A stretch of DNA of 38,829 bases from the sequence record MH717096.1; one strand, 5' to 3'. Of the stretch, positions 1,835 through 29,084 are shown in pieces; positions within the stretch are counted from its first letter, which is position 1; every line of letters starts with the position of its first letter. Position numbers and translations under genes: made by a program. Below the pieces are notes generated by a model that was not told the origin of the DNA, made no database searches, and saw only the letters and a list, made by a program, of their open reading frames with translations. The stretch is from Escherichia phage N7.

Positions 1835-3961
1835 ATGGCAGAGACATTAGAGAAAAAACATGAGCGGATCATGCTCAGGTTTGACCGCGCCTATTCTCCA
1901 CAGAAGGAAGTGCGCGAAAAGTGCATTGAAGCTACGAGGTTTGCTCGTGTCCCCGGAGGTCAATGGGAAGGAGCAACGGCGGCTGGAACTAAGCTTGATG
2001 AGCAGTTCGAGAAGTATCCTAAGTTTGAAATCAATAAGGTAGCAACTGAACTTAACCGCATCATTGCAGAATACCGCAATAACAGAATCACTGTTAAGTT
2101 TCGTCCTGGTGACAGAGAGGCAAGCGAAGAGTTAGCCAATAAATTAAATGGTCTGTTCCGTGCTGACTACGAAGAAACTGATGGCGGTGAGGCTTGCGAT
2201 AATGCATTTGACGACGCTGCTACTGGTGGTTTCGGTTGCTTCCGTTTGACGTCGATGCTGGTCAATGAATACGACCCCATGGACGATCGTCAGCGTATTG
2301 CTATTGAACCAATATACGACCCGTCGCGCTCTGTGTGGTTTGACCCTGACGCTAAGAAGTACGACAAATCTGACGCGTTGTGGGCGTTCTGCATGTATTC
2401 GTTGTCACCTGAAAAATATGAGGCTGAATACGGAAAGAAACCTCCTGCTTCTCTGGATGTAACGTCTATGACCAGTTGGGAATATGACTGGTTTGATGAA
2501 GATGTTATTTACATAGCGAAGTATTACGAAGTTCGTAAAGAGTCTGTTGACGTCATCAGTTATCGACATCCAATCACTGGAGAGATTGCAACATACGACA
2601 GTGATCAGGTTGAAGATATTGAAGATGAACTGGCAATAGCTGGATTTCATGAAGTGGCAAGGCGCTCAGTGAAGCGCCGTCGTGTGTATGTATCCGTAGT
2701 GGATGGTGATGGTTTCCTTGAGAAACCTCGACGTATTCCTGGTGAACATATCCCCCTCATCCCGGTTTATGGAAAACGCTGGTTCATTGATGACATTGAG
2801 CGTGTCGAAGGACATATTGCAAAAGCAATGGATCCACAGCGTTTGTATAACCTTCAGGTATCAATGCTGGCTGATACTGCAGCACAAGACCCCGGTCAGA
2901 TCCCTATAGTTGGCATGGAGCAAATTCGTGGACTTGAGAAGCACTGGGAGGCTCGCAACAAGAAACGACCAGCGTTCTTGCCGTTGCGCGAAGTGAGAGA
3001 TAAATCTGGCAACATCATCGCTGGAGCTACCCCGGCAGGATATACACAGCCCGCGATTATGAATCAGGCATTGGCTGCATTACTACAGCAAACCAGTGCT
3101 GATATTCAGGAGGTTACAGGCGGCAGTCAGGCCATGCAGCAGATGCCAAGTAATATTGCTCAGGAAACGGTTAACAACTTGATGAACAGAGCAGATATGG
3201 CTTCGTTTATCTATCTGGACAATATGGCGAAAAGTCTTAAACGCGCTGGTGAAGTATGGCTGTCAATGGCTCGTGAAGTGTACGGTTCAGAGCGTGAAGT
3301 GCGCATCGTTAACGAAGATGGAAGTGATGATATCGCTGTCCTGAGCGCACAGGTTGTTGACAGGCAAACAGGGGCTGTTGTTGCGTTAAATGACCTTTCT
3401 GTCGGTCGATACGATGTGACGGTTGATGTTGGACCAAGCTACACAGCACGACGTGATGCAACGGTTTCTGTACTGACAAATGTCCTTAGCTCTATGCTTC
3501 CAACAGACCCAATGCGTCCGGCAATTCAGGGTATTATTCTGGACAATATCGATGGCGAAGGCCTTGATGACTTCAAAGAGTACAACCGAAACCAACTGCT
3601 GATATCTGGCATTGCAAAACCACGCAATGAGAAAGAGCAGCAGATTGTTCAACAGGCGCAAATGGCAGCACAAAGCCAGCCAAATCCTGAAATGGTTCTC
3701 GCTCAGGCGCAAATGGTAGCAGCGCAGGCAGAAGCGCAAAAAGCAACTAACGAAACTGCTCAAACTCAAATCAAAGCATTTACTGCCCAGCAGGATGCGA
3801 TGGAGAGTCAGGCAAACACTGTCTATAAACTGGCTCAAGCCAGAAACATCGATGACAAAGCAGTGATGGAGGCAATACGCCTTCTGAAAGATGTCGCCGA
3901 GTCACAACAACAGCAATTCCAGTCACCACCACAGTCTCCGGCAGACTTAATGCCGAGTTAA
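1835..3961 (+). CDS. portal protein
   Basis: 708 aa from ATG 1835 just after terL stop; the ORF-track start at 1763 is an in-frame upstream extension overlapping terL; Q/A-rich C-terminal tail typical of P22-like portals. Confidence 0.85.
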   Translation: MAETLEKKHERIMLRFDRAYSPQKEVREKCIEATRFARVPGGQWEGATAAGTKLDEQFEKYPKFEINKVATELNRIIAEYRNNRITVKFRPGDREASEELANKLNGLFRADYEETDGGEACDNAFDDAATGGFGCFRLTSMLVNEYDPMDDRQRIAIEPIYDPSRSVWFDPDAKKYDKSDALWAFCMYSLSPEKYEAEYGKKPPASLDVTSMTSWEYDWFDEDVIYIAKYYEVRKESVDVISYRHPITGEIATYDSDQVEDIEDELAIAGFHEVARRSVKRRRVYVSVVDGDGFLEKPRRIPGEHIPLIPVYGKRWFIDDIERVEGHIAKAMDPQRLYNLQVSMLADTAAQDPGQIPIVGMEQIRGLEKHWEARNKKRPAFLPLREVRDKSGNIIAGATPAGYTQPAIMNQALAALLQQTSADIQEVTGGSQAMQQMPSNIAQETVNNLMNRADMASFIYLDNMAKSLKRAGEVWLSMAREVYGSEREVRIVNEDGSDDIAVLSAQVVDRQTGAVVALNDLSVGRYDVTVDVGPSYTARRDATVSVLTNVLSSMLPTDPMRPAIQGIILDNIDGEGLDDFKEYNRNQLLISGIAKPRNEKEQQIVQQAQMAAQSQPNPEMVLAQAQMVAAQAEAQKATNETAQTQIKAFTAQQDAMESQANTVYKLAQARNIDDKAVMEAIRLLKDVAESQQQQFQSPPQSPADLMPS

Positions 3962-3974
3962 CCAGGAGTAATCA

Positions 3975-4859
3975 ATGGAAAACGAACTGATCATCGACGG
4001 TCAGGTTATTGGCCTGTCTGAAACACAGGAAAATGCAGAAGAAACCATCATCCAAACAGAGTCACAGCCTGAGAATGAAAGCCAGGATGACAACGGTAAA
4101 GAGGTGGCAACTGAGCCTGAAAAAACCGAAGAGACACCAGAAGATTACGCCTTGCGTATTGGTGATGAAGAAATTCAGCTTAACGCTGACGATGATGATC
4201 ACATTGACGGGCAACCTGCACCGCAATGGGTGAAAGATCTTCGCAAAGGCTTCAAAGAAACACAGAAAGAAAACCGTGAGTTGCGCCGCCAGCTTGAGGA
4301 AGCATTAGCCAAGCCTGCGGAACATCAGCAACCACAACCAGACGCTATTCCACCAAAACCGACTCTTGAGTCGTGTGATTATGACGAACAGGCGTTTGAG
4401 CAGGCATTGACTGATTGGCATGAGAAAAAAGGCCGTGTCGAACAGCAGCAGCAACAAAAACTACGTCAGCAACAGGAATACCAACAGCGTTTCCAGCAAA
4501 GGGTAGAAGCGCATAAACAACGGGCAGCCAAACTTCCTGTGAAAGATTATCAGGAAATGGAGGCCATTGTTCTTAGTGAGCTACCACCAATTCAGCAGGA
4601 AATCATCATTCACTGTGCAGACGAAGGCTCTGAACTACTCGCCTATGGCTTAGGTAAGAGCCAGCAATTACGCCAGCGTGTAGCCGCTGAGACAGATCCA
4701 ATTCGCGCAGCATTCCTCTTGGGGCAGATTAGCAAACAGGTAAGCCTTGCTCCAAAACCAAAGAAAGCCATCAAGCCAGAGCCGGAAGTACGTGGTGGCG
4801 GTGCTGATGCGAAACAAGACGAATTCAACAAATTATGCCCCGGCGCAAAAATCGAATAA
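3975..4859 (+). CDS. scaffolding protein
   Basis: 294 aa between portal and coat; acidic N-terminus, Q/E-rich helical middle (QQQQQKLRQQQEYQQRFQQR), basic C-terminus; SD GGAG before ATG. Confidence 0.7.
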   Translation: MENELIIDGQVIGLSETQENAEETIIQTESQPENESQDDNGKEVATEPEKTEETPEDYALRIGDEEIQLNADDDDHIDGQPAPQWVKDLRKGFKETQKENRELRRQLEEALAKPAEHQQPQPDAIPPKPTLESCDYDEQAFEQALTDWHEKKGRVEQQQQQKLRQQQEYQQRFQQRVEAHKQRAAKLPVKDYQEMEAIVLSELPPIQQEIIIHCADEGSELLAYGLGKSQQLRQRVAAETDPIRAAFLLGQISKQVSLAPKPKKAIKPEPEVRGGGADAKQDEFNKLCPGAKIE

Positions 4860-25760: not shown

Positions 25761-26729
25761 TTAGTAGGTTATTTTTGTTGCGAATACTTCGCCTTTTACG
25801 ATGGCTGTTATGATATTTTTAGCAACATCTTCTGATGCACCAACCTTGATAAGGTCAGCAAGTATTTTGTTATTTACTTCTTTCCGGTGAGCTTTATCCT
25901 TTGCTCTACGCTCTTCTTCGTCCTTGATTCTTTTTTCTTCTGCTATTCTGGCTTGCTCTTTTGCTTCAGCTTCGCGCCGGATTCGTTCAGCCTCCTCCTG
26001 TGCTTTTCGGCGTTCTGCTTCAATTGCCGCCTGCTTTTCTCTTTCAGCTCGTTCTGCTGCCTCTTTTGCTTCGCGCTGTGCTCGTTGCTCGGCTTCAATG
26101 CGTTCACGCTCTGCACGTTCCGCTGCTGCCTTAGCTTCTGCTTCTCGCCTTGCTGCTGCTTCAATTTCGGCTTTTGCCTTTGCTTCGGCTTCTGCTCTGG
26201 CTTTCTCTTCAGCTTCTCTTTTTAAGCGTTCTTCATGCTCTCGCTTTTCCTGCTCCGCTTTGAGTCTTGCCTCTTCTCTTTTGCGGTCAAATTCGCGATC
26301 CATCAAAATCGCTATTTCATGGTCAGACTCAATTTGCTTTGCGAGAGCTTCAGCTGCTGCCTTAGCTTCTTCTTCGGCTTTAATCCGTGCCTGTTCATCC
26401 TCATAATCAGTAAGAGGCTGGCGCGCCTTGGCTTTCAGTTCATCAAGGCGATCGCGCACTGTCTTGCGGTTGGCATCAATTAGCTTTGGAATTTCCTTCA
26501 GTTCAGCAACAAGGTCTTTGCCAAGACCATCGAGATATGTTTTCGTCTGCGCAACTTTATACGCCAGAGAAGCGATCTCCTTTCTGCCCTTTGCCGTTGT
26601 GATATCAGGCACAAAGGACATAACTTCACGTTCAACCTTTTGAAGGATTTCTTCAATCTGGTCGGCAGACTGAAATACAGTCATTGCATTTGCTTTTTCA
26701 ATAACAACTAAATCTGTTACTTCACTCAT
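25761..26729 (-). CDS. hypothetical charged coiled-coil protein
   Basis: ATG at 26729 with SD GGAGGA (ORF-track start at 26783 is an extension); ~150-aa E/A/K/R-rich repeat (AEEKARAEAEAKAKAEIEAAARREAEAK...). Confidence 0.6.
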   Translation of the reverse strand: MSEVTDLVVIEKANAMTVFQSADQIEEILQKVEREVMSFVPDITTAKGRKEIASLAYKVAQTKTYLDGLGKDLVAELKEIPKLIDANRKTVRDRLDELKAKARQPLTDYEDEQARIKAEEEAKAAAEALAKQIESDHEIAILMDREFDRKREEARLKAEQEKREHEERLKREAEEKARAEAEAKAKAEIEAAARREAEAKAAAERAERERIEAEQRAQREAKEAAERAEREKQAAIEAERRKAQEEAERIRREAEAKEQARIAEEKRIKDEEERRAKDKAHRKEVNNKILADLIKVGASEDVAKNIITAIVKGEVFATKITY

Positions 26730-26741
26730 ATATCCTCCATC

Positions 26742-26770
26742 AAAAAAATTGCCCTCACACTGGAGGGCAA
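26742..26770 (-). terminator. rho-independent terminator (tL-like) just upstream of the coiled-coil gene
   Basis: Minus strand TTGCCCTC-CAGTGT-GAGGGCAA followed by TTTTTTT. Confidence 0.5.
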
Positions 26771-26917
26771 AGAAGATTTCCAATAATCAGAACAAGTCGG
26801 CTCCTGTTTAGTTACGAGCGACATTGCTCCGTGTATTCACTCGTTGGAATGAATACACAGTGCAGTGTTTATTCTGTTGTTTATGCCAAAAATGAAGGTC
26901 GACTATGTGGCCTGAAA

Positions 26918-27283
26918 TTACTTAACCAATGATGCTGCATATTCGATAAGGTAAAGTTTTGGAGCAAGCCAGATTTTCAGCCAGTCGAAATAATTGAAGA
27001 AAACAACAATAGAAGTAATCGCTATTCCTGATGTTACAAGTAGCGATAAAAGAAAAATATCCGCATCATCTCCTTTATTCCATGCAAAAATCATCAGATA
27101 AACACACGCTATAATCACCAATACACAGATAGCCTGAATTCCAGCTGATGATACGGCGTGCCACATCAAAAGCTGATGGATGACATCAGGAATCTGTGCC
27201 TGGCTAAATGAAACAGCCGCGTCTATTCCATTACTGGCTTTTTGCAGTAGTTCTACGAGAATCTTGTTTGCTTGTTCTTCCAT
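26918..27283 (-). CDS. hypothetical inner-membrane protein (candidate superinfection-exclusion type)
   Basis: 121 aa with two to three hydrophobic helices; SD AAGGGGA; lies between ral and the coiled-coil gene. Confidence 0.5.
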   Translation of the reverse strand: MEEQANKILVELLQKASNGIDAAVSFSQAQIPDVIHQLLMWHAVSSAGIQAICVLVIIACVYLMIFAWNKGDDADIFLLSLLVTSGIAITSIVVFFNYFDWLKIWLAPKLYLIEYAASLVK

Positions 27284-27342
27284 ATATCCCCTTGATTGTA
27301 ATAAGCATGAAATTATTTACGGCCAAAAAATAAAGGCCACCA

Positions 27343-27543
27343 TCAGGCAGCCTTGTTGTTCTGTTTACCAAGTTCTCTGGCAATCATTGCCGTAGTTCGT
27401 ATTGCCCATTTATCGACATATTTCCCATCTTCCATTACAGGAAACATTTCTTCAGGCTTAACCATGCATTCCGATTGCAGCTTGCATCCATTGCATCGTT
27501 TGAATTGTCCACACCATTGATTTTTATCAATAGTCGTAGTCAT
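27343..27543 (-). CDS. ral: restriction alleviation protein Ral
   Basis: 66 aa MTTTIDKNQWCGQFKRCNGCKLQSECMVKPEE..., matching recalled lambda Ral. Confidence 0.7.
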   Translation of the reverse strand: MTTTIDKNQWCGQFKRCNGCKLQSECMVKPEEMFPVMEDGKYVDKWAIRTTAMIARELGKQNNKAA

Positions 27544-27813
27544 AAGGATAGTCCTGGTATTGTTCCATCACATCCTGCGGATGCTCTTCGAACTCTTCAA
27601 ATTCTTCTTCCATATATCACCTCAAATAAGTGGTTTGCTGCGAAAATAAATCCGCTTAAGTTACCTGTTATTTATCCCACCAAGTTCCGTATCTATCTAT
27701 CCAGTTACACCAATCATCGACACTCCATTTTGTTGTGTCGCATTTTGGCAACTGGCATGAATATCTACCTTCTTTGTAAAGTCGGCGTTTGACTTTCTTG
27801 AGCATGGCTCACC

Positions 27814-28119
27814 TCAATCGTAATAAGCTGGAATTGATTTTCCGCGTTGCTTCTGGCGACCAACACAAGTAACACCCATTTCACTGCGTGGCTTGCGGTA
27901 GTAAATACGGTTCTGTTTACGCTCGACTTCATCTGTCTTCTTGCAGCGAAGGCTTCCGAGTGATGCTGCTTTGTCTGCTCTGACGCAACCAGAGAGCTTT
28001 AGCGCAATTTTTCGCGCCAGTCGCTGTTCTTGCATTGCCTGTTCACGTTGAGCCTGTCTGCGTGCTCTGCGGCGATTTCTGGCGTTATCGTCAGCCAGAT
28101 ATGTAATGACTACTGTCAT
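27814..28119 (-). CDS. N: antitermination protein N (phage-21-like)
   Basis: Arginine-rich N-terminus NARNRRRARRQAQRE; C-terminal ...YYRKPRSEMGVTCVGRQKQRGKSIP resembles recalled N proteins; first gene after pL/nutL. Confidence 0.8.
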   Translation of the reverse strand: MTVVITYLADDNARNRRRARRQAQREQAMQEQRLARKIALKLSGCVRADKAASLGSLRCKKTDEVERKQNRIYYRKPRSEMGVTCVGRQKQRGKSIPAYYD

Positions 28120-28226
28120 GTTGACCTCCGATGATTGACTTTGGCGGTGACGCGCCGGGTGCTTATCTTCCGGTTGCCGTCGTGCATCTGCACTTCACGT
28201 CACCCCAAAGCCAACTACTCTTTGGT

Positions 28227-28267
28227 TCCCGCATTTCGGCGGGACAATCCCATCAATGTTAAAGAGC
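28227..28267 (-). promoter_or_regulatory. nutL (boxA + boxB)
   Basis: Minus-strand boxA GCTCTTTAACA then boxB hairpin TCCCGC-CGAAAT-GCGGGA; the identical boxB occurs in nutR. Confidence 0.55.
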
Positions 28268-28304
28268 CTGCCAATCTGTTCCGTTTGGCTACCAGCGTCC
28301 TGCT

Positions 28305-28395
28305 GATGGCTTAAATTTAAGATCTCTTTAATTAATGGTCAAGAGTATTTTTGAAGAAAACTTAAATTTTCTTTCGTAACTTAAGTTTGGCTTTG
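28305..28395. promoter_or_regulatory. OL operators and pL
   Basis: Palindromes CTTAAATTTAAG (28310-28321), GAAAACTTAAATTTTC (28356-28371), AACTTAAGTT (28378-28387); minus-strand TTGACC-N17-TAAATT promoter. Confidence 0.5.
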
Positions 28396-28410
28396 ATTTT
28401 TAAAGGAAAT

Positions 28411-28436
28411 AAAAAAAAGGGGCGAATGCCCCCTTA
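28411..28436 (-). terminator. rho-independent terminator downstream of repressor gene
   Basis: Minus-strand GC-rich hairpin (GGGGC-ATTC-GCCCC) followed by TTTTTTTT. Confidence 0.6.
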
Positions 28437-29084
28437 TGGAAGGTTTGCTAGTTTTGCATCGACAACTACGCCGATGATTTTGCAGTTTCCGTTGATCTCG
28501 ATCATCGGATATTGTGGGTTAAGTGGTTTTAGAAACTTCCTGCCTGCATCAATAACTAACTTCTTGAAAGTTGCCTCGTTTTCTCCTTCGAGCTTTGCAA
28601 CTACCAGTTTCCCGTTACGCGGCTCTACTTCAGGATCGACGAGTATTATCATTCCTTCAGGGATACTGAGACCGGCCGGAGCCGTCATTGAGTCTCCCTT
28701 CACGTCCAACCAAAACGAATCTTCTGAACAGTCTACGGTTGTATCGTACCAGTTATCTATTGCACGCTTATGATATGGTTCTACAGCTTCCATCCAGCAT
28801 CCTGCGCTCACCCAGCTAATCAGAGGGTATGACCCTCTTGGATCATGCCTACTGTGATAGGCAATGTTTGAAAGACTTTCCTCTCCTTTCATCAGATAGT
28901 CAGGGGAACACTTCAACGCATTAGCCAGGGCGAGAAGATTCTCTCCATTTGGCTCTGTCTCAGAGCGTTCCCACTGAGATATGGCAACATTAGACACGCC
29001 GACCATCTTTCCAAGTGCGGCCTGCCTGATCTTGAGTTCTTTTCTCCGAGCGCGAATGCGCTCTCCCATCAATTGAGTTTTCAT
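28434..29084 (-). CDS. c2: prophage repressor (P22 C2 / CI type)
   Basis: 216 aa; MKTQLMGERIRARRKELKIRQAALGKMVGVSNVAISQWERSETEPNGENL... closely matches recalled P22 C2; C-terminal LexA-like autocleavage domain. Confidence 0.9.
   Translation of the reverse strand: MKTQLMGERIRARRKELKIRQAALGKMVGVSNVAISQWERSETEPNGENLLALANALKCSPDYLMKGEESLSNIAYHSRHDPRGSYPLISWVSAGCWMEAVEPYHKRAIDNWYDTTVDCSEDSFWLDVKGDSMTAPAGLSIPEGMIILVDPEVEPRNGKLVVAKLEGENEATFKKLVIDAGRKFLKPLNPQYPMIEINGNCKIIGVVVDAKLANLP

Follow-up and report, generated by a model that had tools for sequence, protein, structure and literature searches.

A mosaic accessory region of the pL operon of Escherichia phage N7 carries the orf28-ral gene pair between two variable slots

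We analysed the 38,829-nucleotide sequence of Escherichia phage N7 (MH717096.1; hereafter the window), a complete P22-like (Lederbergvirus-type) phage genome of 38.8 kb, with respect to the genes that follow its N-type antiterminator gene. The initial annotation had read this segment as a combined anti-restriction and exclusion cluster, and the four minus-strand open reading frames (ORFs) on which it was built (26918-27283, 27343-27543, 27527-27613 and 27668-27805) were all recovered. In the order of transcription they encode a 45-residue DUF5484 protein, the 28-residue acidic peptide of orf28, the restriction alleviation protein Ral and a 121-residue membrane protein. Our analysis identifies the region, with a probability of roughly 0.7, as the accessory stretch nearest the promoter in the pL (early-left) operon of an Sf6/P22-like temperate phage, composed of cassettes that are exchanged independently among lambdoid phages. 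Within it, orf28 and ral form a fixed two-gene unit between two variable slots, and orf28 is a real coding gene. An anti-restriction role is supported for the region, whereas an exclusion role of the membrane protein is not.

On the minus strand, the order of elements is pL, nutL, N, the DUF5484 gene, orf28-ral, a hairpin, a gene of the Sf6 gp34 family, a tL2-like hairpin, a gp33-like coiled-coil gene, cIII and kil; in the ORF listing cI, cro and cII lie upstream of the region and cIII and kil downstream. Sf6, CUS-3, phage 21, lambda and P22 share this layout. Sf6, HF4s and CUS-3 are the closest relatives of the window in the phage collection, where no record covers 80% of this mosaic genome. 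All four ORFs match profile families (E-values 2.6e-12 to 1.7e-49), and the genes of the region are 98–100% identical to database entries and all belong to catalogued families. Each component is accordingly already present in databases, and the layout is that of a standard mosaic lambdoid pL accessory region. A strong Shine-Dalgarno (SD) sequence precedes the 45-, 28- and 121-residue ORFs, but not ral. The first slot, from N to orf28 (slot A), is empty in some relatives and in others contains sieB, a DUF5484 gene or an ORF of 74 residues. The second, after ral (slot B), is occupied by ea10, by alleles of the gp34 family, by gene 17 or by others; it holds ea10 in lambda and orf78/orf87/17 in P22. 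In lambda, P22 and HK140, slot A holds sieB, which is encoded on the opposite strand under a promoter of its own; in the window this slot contains the DUF5484 gene.

The most similar arrangement is that of Sf6 genes 37-33 (N, gp36, ral, gp34 and gp33), which shares the gene order, an identical gp36, a tL2A-like terminator and a gp33-like coiled coil with the window. The Sf6 gp34 is a 140-residue allele with a long loop that is ~55% identical to the window protein and divergent across the transmembrane (TM) hairpin, the Sf6 N is lambda-like whereas the window N is phage-21-like in its C-terminal part, and orf28 is not annotated in Sf6.

The acidic frame immediately before ral (27527..27613, minus strand) corresponds to orf28 of lambda. 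Its product is a Tyr-rich peptide of 28 residues, rather than the 30 given in the initial annotation, and matches phrog_16060 over residues 1-28 of 28 (E-value 7.1e-19); the gene is preceded by the SD sequence GAGGTGA. The description of the frame as highly acidic and as overlapping the ral start with its stop codon was borne out: the peptide contains 12 Asp/Glu and no Lys or Arg (isoelectric point 4.05), and its TGA codon lies 14 nucleotides into ral, which results in an overlap of 17 nucleotides (27527-27543). The SD sequence of ral (AGGA, 8-nucleotide spacing) is itself located within orf28. The peptide is identical to those of lambda (orf28/lambdap47), P22 and phage 21, and the nucleotide differences among these three phages and the window are all synonymous in the orf28 frame, despite the P22 Ral being only 74% identical. 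The lambda pair (lambdap47-lambdap46) agrees with that of the window in both protein sequences, in the 17-nucleotide overlap, in the SD sequence and in its location downstream of N in the pL operon. It differs in its surroundings, with an opposite-strand sieB between N and orf28 and ea10 after ral, in place of the DUF5484 gene before the pair and the gp34-family gene after it.

We followed this arrangement across 160 Ral loci retrieved from IMG/VR with lambda-type and BTP1-type Ral as queries, together with reference phages, which gave 163 usable loci. An intact acidic ORF located directly upstream of ral and ending inside it was present at approximately 159 of these, represented by 29 nucleotide haplotypes and 19 peptide variants. 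Across the 29 haplotypes, the ratio of nonsynonymous to synonymous variation (pN/pS), calculated on the 66 nucleotides free of overlap with ral, was 0.15 in the orf28 frame compared with 2.26 and 1.63 in the other two frames; the pairwise sums behind these ratios are not phylogenetically independent, which tempers their weight. The variable sites are distributed over the three codon positions as 6:5:18 (chi-square ~10.8, 2 degrees of freedom, p ~0.005), and the amino acid replacements are mainly Glu/Asp swaps. The core HPxDxMxQYxDYxY is kept at loci whose Ral is only ~60–80% identical. At two distant Ral loci a shorter acidic ORF that overlaps the ral start is retained with the core HPxDxMSQYxDYxY (L184, MDSDEFEEHPDDEMSQYQDYPYDF; L186, MEEFDQHPDDDMSQYEDYRYEY). 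In two further IMG/VR loci (L108 and L181, ~1400-1500) a deletion of the first two-thirds of orf28 joins its SD sequence to an internal ATG.

The geometry of the two genes suggests how they may work together. Translation of orf28 would start from its strong SD sequence and ribosomes would terminate 14 nucleotides inside ral. This termination would open the weakly structured ral start, so that the translation of ral is probably coupled to that of orf28. In the predicted structure of the ral start, AGGA pairs with UCCU, and codons 3-10 contain a hairpin of 9 bp. Because the peptide sequence is under purifying selection, we consider that the orf28 peptide is probably also functional in itself, most plausibly in concert with Ral or by acting on Ral's target.

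Several observations weigh against these proposals. The predicted fold of the ral start is only modestly better than those of shuffled sequences (z = -2.1), and AGGA with its 8-nucleotide spacing could suffice by itself. A lineage typified by GZMU_E2010 (L185) contains a Ral with its own promoter and SD sequence and lacks orf28; therefore, Ral is not strictly dependent on orf28. The remnant at L108 and L181 is a 13-residue mini-ORF (MNKYQEY..) that still terminates within ral, and at another locus (L116) orf28 contains a nonsense codon. Knock-down of lambda orf28 caused no plaque defect, in a host without type I restriction (PMC10695390). The literature that we found on orf28 is limited to strain lists and to its classification as non-essential in the CRISPR interference screen.

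Part of this evidence would also fit a role of orf28 as a leader ORF only, in which its translation matters for the coupling or regulation of ral and the peptide has no function of its own. Such a role would be in line with the 17-nucleotide overlap with the ral start and the position of the ral SD sequence inside orf28, with the deletion variant that keeps an SD sequence and a mini-ORF ending in ral, with the existence of a Ral lineage devoid of orf28, and with the non-essential nature of the lambda gene. However, a pure leader would have no need for a core motif retained where Ral itself has diverged, nor would it be expected to show the low pN/pS and third-position bias in the non-overlapping 66 nucleotides or replacements dominated by Glu/Asp swaps. 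We regard the leader-only role as possible but doubtful. Somewhat more tentative still is the proposal that orf28 represents a second component of the Ral anti-restriction module, overlooked ever since lambda was annotated; the peptide might either bind the basic Ral as a partner or, as a polyanion resembling a DNA backbone, act on the type I enzyme.

The identification of Ral itself (27343..27543, minus strand) was confirmed. The 66-residue protein matches PF11058 with 162.5 bits (cut-off 25; E-value 1.6e-48) over residues 1-66 of 66 and shows 100% identity over its 66 residues with lambda Ral (NC_001416). Sf6 Ral is 98.5% identical to the window protein, compared with only 74% for that of P22. 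In the presence of Ral, type IA restriction-modification enzymes of the EcoKI family methylate the first strand of unmodified DNA de novo more rapidly, and this enhanced modification alleviates type IA (EcoKI/EcoB) restriction (PMC12707154); sensitivity to Ral maps to HsdM's N-terminal domain (PMC12707154; PMC9410887). When ral is knocked down, lambda plates less well only if the host has an active type I system (PMC10695390). Because the protein sequences are identical, the function described in the lambda literature should be transferable to the window Ral, which would thus act through the HsdM N-terminal domain to give faster methylation of unmodified phage DNA. A PDB search identified no solved structure of Ral.

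Two other forms of the locus were observed among the collected sequences. At L092 and L185 (vB_EcoS_GZMU_E2010 type, 1340-1510) a divergent Ral, 64% identical, is encoded in a non-lambdoid context, with a TTGACA-N17-TATAGT promoter, a GAGAGGA SD sequence and a GTG start, and without orf28. At two IMG/VR loci (L235 and L248, ~3770-4000) an identical internal frameshifting deletion makes ral a pseudogene, and orf28 and the downstream gp34-family gene are intact.

The 45-residue ORF in slot A (27668..27805, minus strand) belongs to the DUF5484 family, which includes Sf6 gp36 and T4 gp55.4. It matches PF17583 with 46.7 bits (cut-off 27; E-value 2.6e-12) and phrog_1871 at 1.4e-22, and its SD sequence, GAGGTGA, overlaps the stop codon of N. 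The protein is identical to Sf6 gp36, a gene annotated in Sf6 as "similar to T4 Orf55.4", and shares 48–50% identity with T4 gp55.4 and its relatives. By tblastn the family was found in 1054 phage records, nearly all from T4-like phages of Escherichia, Klebsiella and related hosts; only ~10 of these records represent temperate phages. In lambdoid phages the gene is always located directly after N. Since it follows three N types and is present with or without ral, we conclude that the DUF5484 gene is an independent cassette and not part of the anti-restriction unit. The likeness to T4 gp55.4 extends over the whole length (~50% identity) and includes the same conserved Lys, Gly, Tyr, Pro, Asp-Thr and Trp positions. 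The T4 gene differs in lying in an early/middle cluster by nrdH and gene 55 of a virulent myovirus, not after an antiterminator, and its product contains no Cys.

An alignment of 25 sequences identified K6, D23, T24 and W27 as invariant and R7, L9, G13, Y15, P20, K21 and W32 as near-invariant in the family, all of which are present in the window protein. The earlier characterisation of this ORF as Cys/Trp-rich is correct for the window allele, which features three cysteines (C17, C22 and C33) and five tryptophans, but it does not extend to the family: the tryptophans are kept, whereas the three Cys positions are occupied in T4-like homologues by Thr/Glu/Ile, Gly and Ile, respectively. We considered whether the three Cys and five Trp of this allele could indicate a Cys-based, zinc-ribbon-like metal-binding mini-protein. 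Given the replacement of the cysteines in the T4-like homologues and a confident AlphaFold2 (AF2) model in which the protein forms a small helix-strand-helix-strand unit (predicted local distance difference test score of 90), this was rejected at the family level as very improbable. The DUF5484 product would be a small soluble alpha/beta protein that lambdoid phages share with T4-like phages. Foldseek comparison with the PDB returned nothing with an E-value below 4.9 and a PDB sequence search gave no match. Our literature search found no paper naming DUF5484 or the three PHROG identifiers, and the sole mention of gp55.4 was its transcript in an RNA-seq list for T2. In Klebsiella phage vB_Kpn_AM_K6 (L103, 1-420), DUF5484 is annotated as the C-terminus of a 394-residue coding sequence, which represents either a gene fusion or a missed stop codon or frameshift in the annotation.

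Both short frames had been presented as unannotated, which does not hold, as the 45-residue ORF is gene 36 in the Sf6 annotation and the 28-residue ORF is orf28 in that of lambda. Their brevity, at 28 and 45 residues, means that gene callers often skip them, and neither is annotated in CUS-3 or in Escherichia coli records from the Prokaryotic Genome Annotation Pipeline (PGAP), as would be the case for chance ORFs in intergenic DNA. However, both match profile families, both have a strong SD sequence and both are conserved in relatives, DUF5484 in the 1054 phage records, including T4, and orf28 at ~159 of the 163 loci. The spread of the DUF5484 family and the frame-specific substitutions of orf28 refute the chance-ORF explanation, which we consider to have next to no likelihood.

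The gene in slot B (26918..27283, minus strand; SD sequence AAGGGGA) encodes a 121-residue protein that matches phrog_3054 over residues 1-121 (E-value 7.1e-47) and belongs to the Sf6 gp34 family. Of the multi-helix membrane protein proposed initially, the membrane location was retained; hydropathy and the AF2 model show two hydrophobic TM segments (approximately residues 45-68 and 75-98) and amphipathic helices at the N- and C-termini, so the protein is not polytopic. Its identity is 98% with a common E. coli prophage protein, named "hypothetical protein" by PGAP, and ~55% with the 140-residue gp34-type homologues. We identified 574 homologues of the window protein, and a search with the gp34-family profile retrieved 4496 cluster representatives at E<=1e-3 and 1897 at E<=1e-10. 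The family alignment showed a near-invariant N-terminus of ~46 residues and C-terminus of ~23 residues, and TM helices and a loop of 8 to ~35 residues that were barely alignable. Within three allele classes, pN/pS was 0.02–0.13 for the N-terminus, 0–0.08 for the C-terminus and 0.28–0.44 for the TM segments plus loop. The last of these ranges corresponds to relaxed constraint, and diversifying selection on the loop was therefore rejected. It is the soluble helices at the N- and C-termini that are constrained, with the TM hairpin as a loosely constrained anchor. The protein would be an early protein anchored in the inner membrane, and its conserved terminal helices are most likely the parts through which it works. 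As a guide to topology, a positive-inside count gave five Lys and Arg in the termini and one in the loop of the window allele, but it was ambiguous in the long-loop alleles, and the crude TM segmentation behind it failed for most members.

Genes of the gp34 family are usually found in the pL operon, where they follow N, ral, sieB or DUF5484. One member is found between a KilA-N gene and the terminase gene in a Serratia prophage and another beside the portal gene of a different phage, and Pseudomonas phage Bjorn encodes a structural and sequence homologue. Foldseek comparison with BFVD retrieved only uncharacterised phage homologues, the window protein and ten distant family members gave no significant match in Pfam, NCBIfam or PADLOC, and a PDB sequence search with the family profile gave no match. 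This family may represent a large class of early phage membrane effectors that has so far gone uncharacterised.

The signals around these genes bear on when they may be expressed. A consensus scan of 26600-28500 identified a single promoter-like site, a pL-like sigma-70 promoter (TTGACC-17-TAAATT; 28314..28342, minus strand) located just downstream of the cI-like repressor gene (28434-29084 in the ORF listing, with cro and cII beyond). It is followed by a nutL-like site (28228..28267, minus strand) read from the sequence, with a boxA (GCTCTTTAAC, 28258-28267) and a boxB hairpin (CCCGCCGAAATGCGGG, 28228-28243) on the same strand; we assigned these according to the lambda boxA consensus and the equivalent annotation in Sf6 and phage 21. 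A terminator-like hairpin with a T-run (27323..27354, minus strand) spans the ral stop codon and features a 9-bp stem with 5 GC pairs and the tail TATTTTTTGG. A second hairpin of this type (26739..26770, minus strand) is located just before the coiled-coil gene and is the counterpart of the Sf6 site annotated tL2A. In total, 8 terminator-like sites were predicted in 26600-28500, compared with 1.4 expected from shuffled sequences, and an Rfam search of the same interval gave no real match. As the membrane gene lies between the two terminator-like hairpins, at 27354-27333 and 26770-26749, and the consensus scan detected no promoter-like site upstream of it, we expect N-antiterminated pL transcripts to be its sole source of expression. 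After infection or induction, such transcripts would pass both hairpins, and the DUF5484, orf28, ral and membrane genes would therefore be early genes of the lytic cycle and silent in the lysogen.

The initial annotation had assigned the membrane gene to superinfection exclusion on the basis of its position. Under this proposal the 121-residue protein would block the entry or development of other phages and the cluster would pair anti-restriction with exclusion. The positional argument is weak and only loosely right: the accessory region of relatives does carry exclusion-related genes in nearby slots, but the place of sieB in lambda, P22 and HK140 is slot A and not the slot after ral. Homologues of gene 17 do follow ral in relatives, and alleles differ greatly in the sequence and length of the TM hairpin and loop. 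The proposal is also favoured by the known ability of small inner-membrane proteins, among them T4 Imm and HK97 gp15, to block DNA injection. However, the homology searches were negative, as no similarity was detected to SieB, GP17 or any PADLOC model. Against SieB (PF14163) there was no Pfam match at E<=1, and hhalign gave a probability of 0.2% with P22 and lambda SieB, which as controls match PF14163 at ~1e-29. SieB/Esc of lambda and P22 is likewise a membrane protein from the N-to-cIII accessory region, but beyond the lack of sequence or profile similarity it is encoded on the opposite strand, has its own promoter (PsieB), comprises 184–192 residues and occupies the other slot. No match to P22 GP17 (PF17420) was found for any of the four ORFs, compared with 195.7 bits for the P22 gene 17 control. 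The best PADLOC-DB matches were to generic '2TM effector' models (E = 0.058–0.11), reflecting the compositional similarity of TM segments.

The regulatory context adds to this. With no promoter-like site upstream and with terminator-like hairpins on both sides in a repressed pL operon, expression of the membrane gene from the prophage would be unexpected. The variable TM segments and loop are under relaxed constraint, it is the soluble termini that are conserved, and relatives adjoin terminase or portal genes in other phages. Taken together, regulation and selection both argue against an exclusion function expressed from the prophage, whereas exclusion during lytic growth is conceivable; overall, we consider the exclusion proposal unlikely.

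In P22, ST64T and some E. coli prophages, ral is followed by gene 17 (PF17420, 'superinfection exclusion gene product 17'), which thereby shares the location of the window membrane gene, but its product is a soluble protein of 103 residues with an unrelated sequence. According to the GenBank record of P22-pbi, gene 17 allows growth on a Fels2 lysogen, a way of escaping exclusion and not of exerting it. The closest E. coli prophage, that of MS6192 (L007, 1069-1380), has a P22 gene-17 homologue inserted between the membrane and coiled-coil genes, and the window contains no such homologue. PGAP names this inserted gene 'superinfection exclusion protein'.

The genes that border the region are also of known families. 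The N-type antiterminator (27814..28119, minus strand; 101 residues) matches phrog_271 at 2.2e-36, and its score against PF25694 (21.9 bits) is under the gathering cut-off. From approximately residue 34 (ALARKIALKLSGCVRADKAASLGSLRCK...) it matches the N of phage 21, this part comprising the C-terminal two-thirds of the protein, whereas its Arg-rich RNA-binding N-terminus differs. This composition implies a recombination joint inside N, which would lie between the nut-binding and host-factor-binding parts. The published study of Sf6 evolution deals with the nin region alone. Downstream of the membrane gene, a 322-residue coiled-coil protein rich in Ala, Glu, Lys and Arg (25761..26729, minus strand) belongs to the Sf6 gp33 family (phrog_1376 at 8.9e-110). 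The names given to this protein conflict, from 'TolA' (PGAP) and 'Agt-like Gam antitoxin' (HF4s) to 'hypothetical' elsewhere. Its ORF can be extended to a TTG at 26783, and homologues begin at the ATG at 26729.

As a genome feature the region is routine and its genes are already known. The 45-residue gene is nonetheless common to T4-like virulent and lambdoid temperate phages, and the gp34-type membrane protein represents a very large phage family without a Pfam model. What remains of most interest in the region is orf28, which the lambda reference lists as "hypothetical" although it accompanies ral almost without exception and is clearly under coding selection; therefore, experiments in which ral is cloned alone may miss part of the module.
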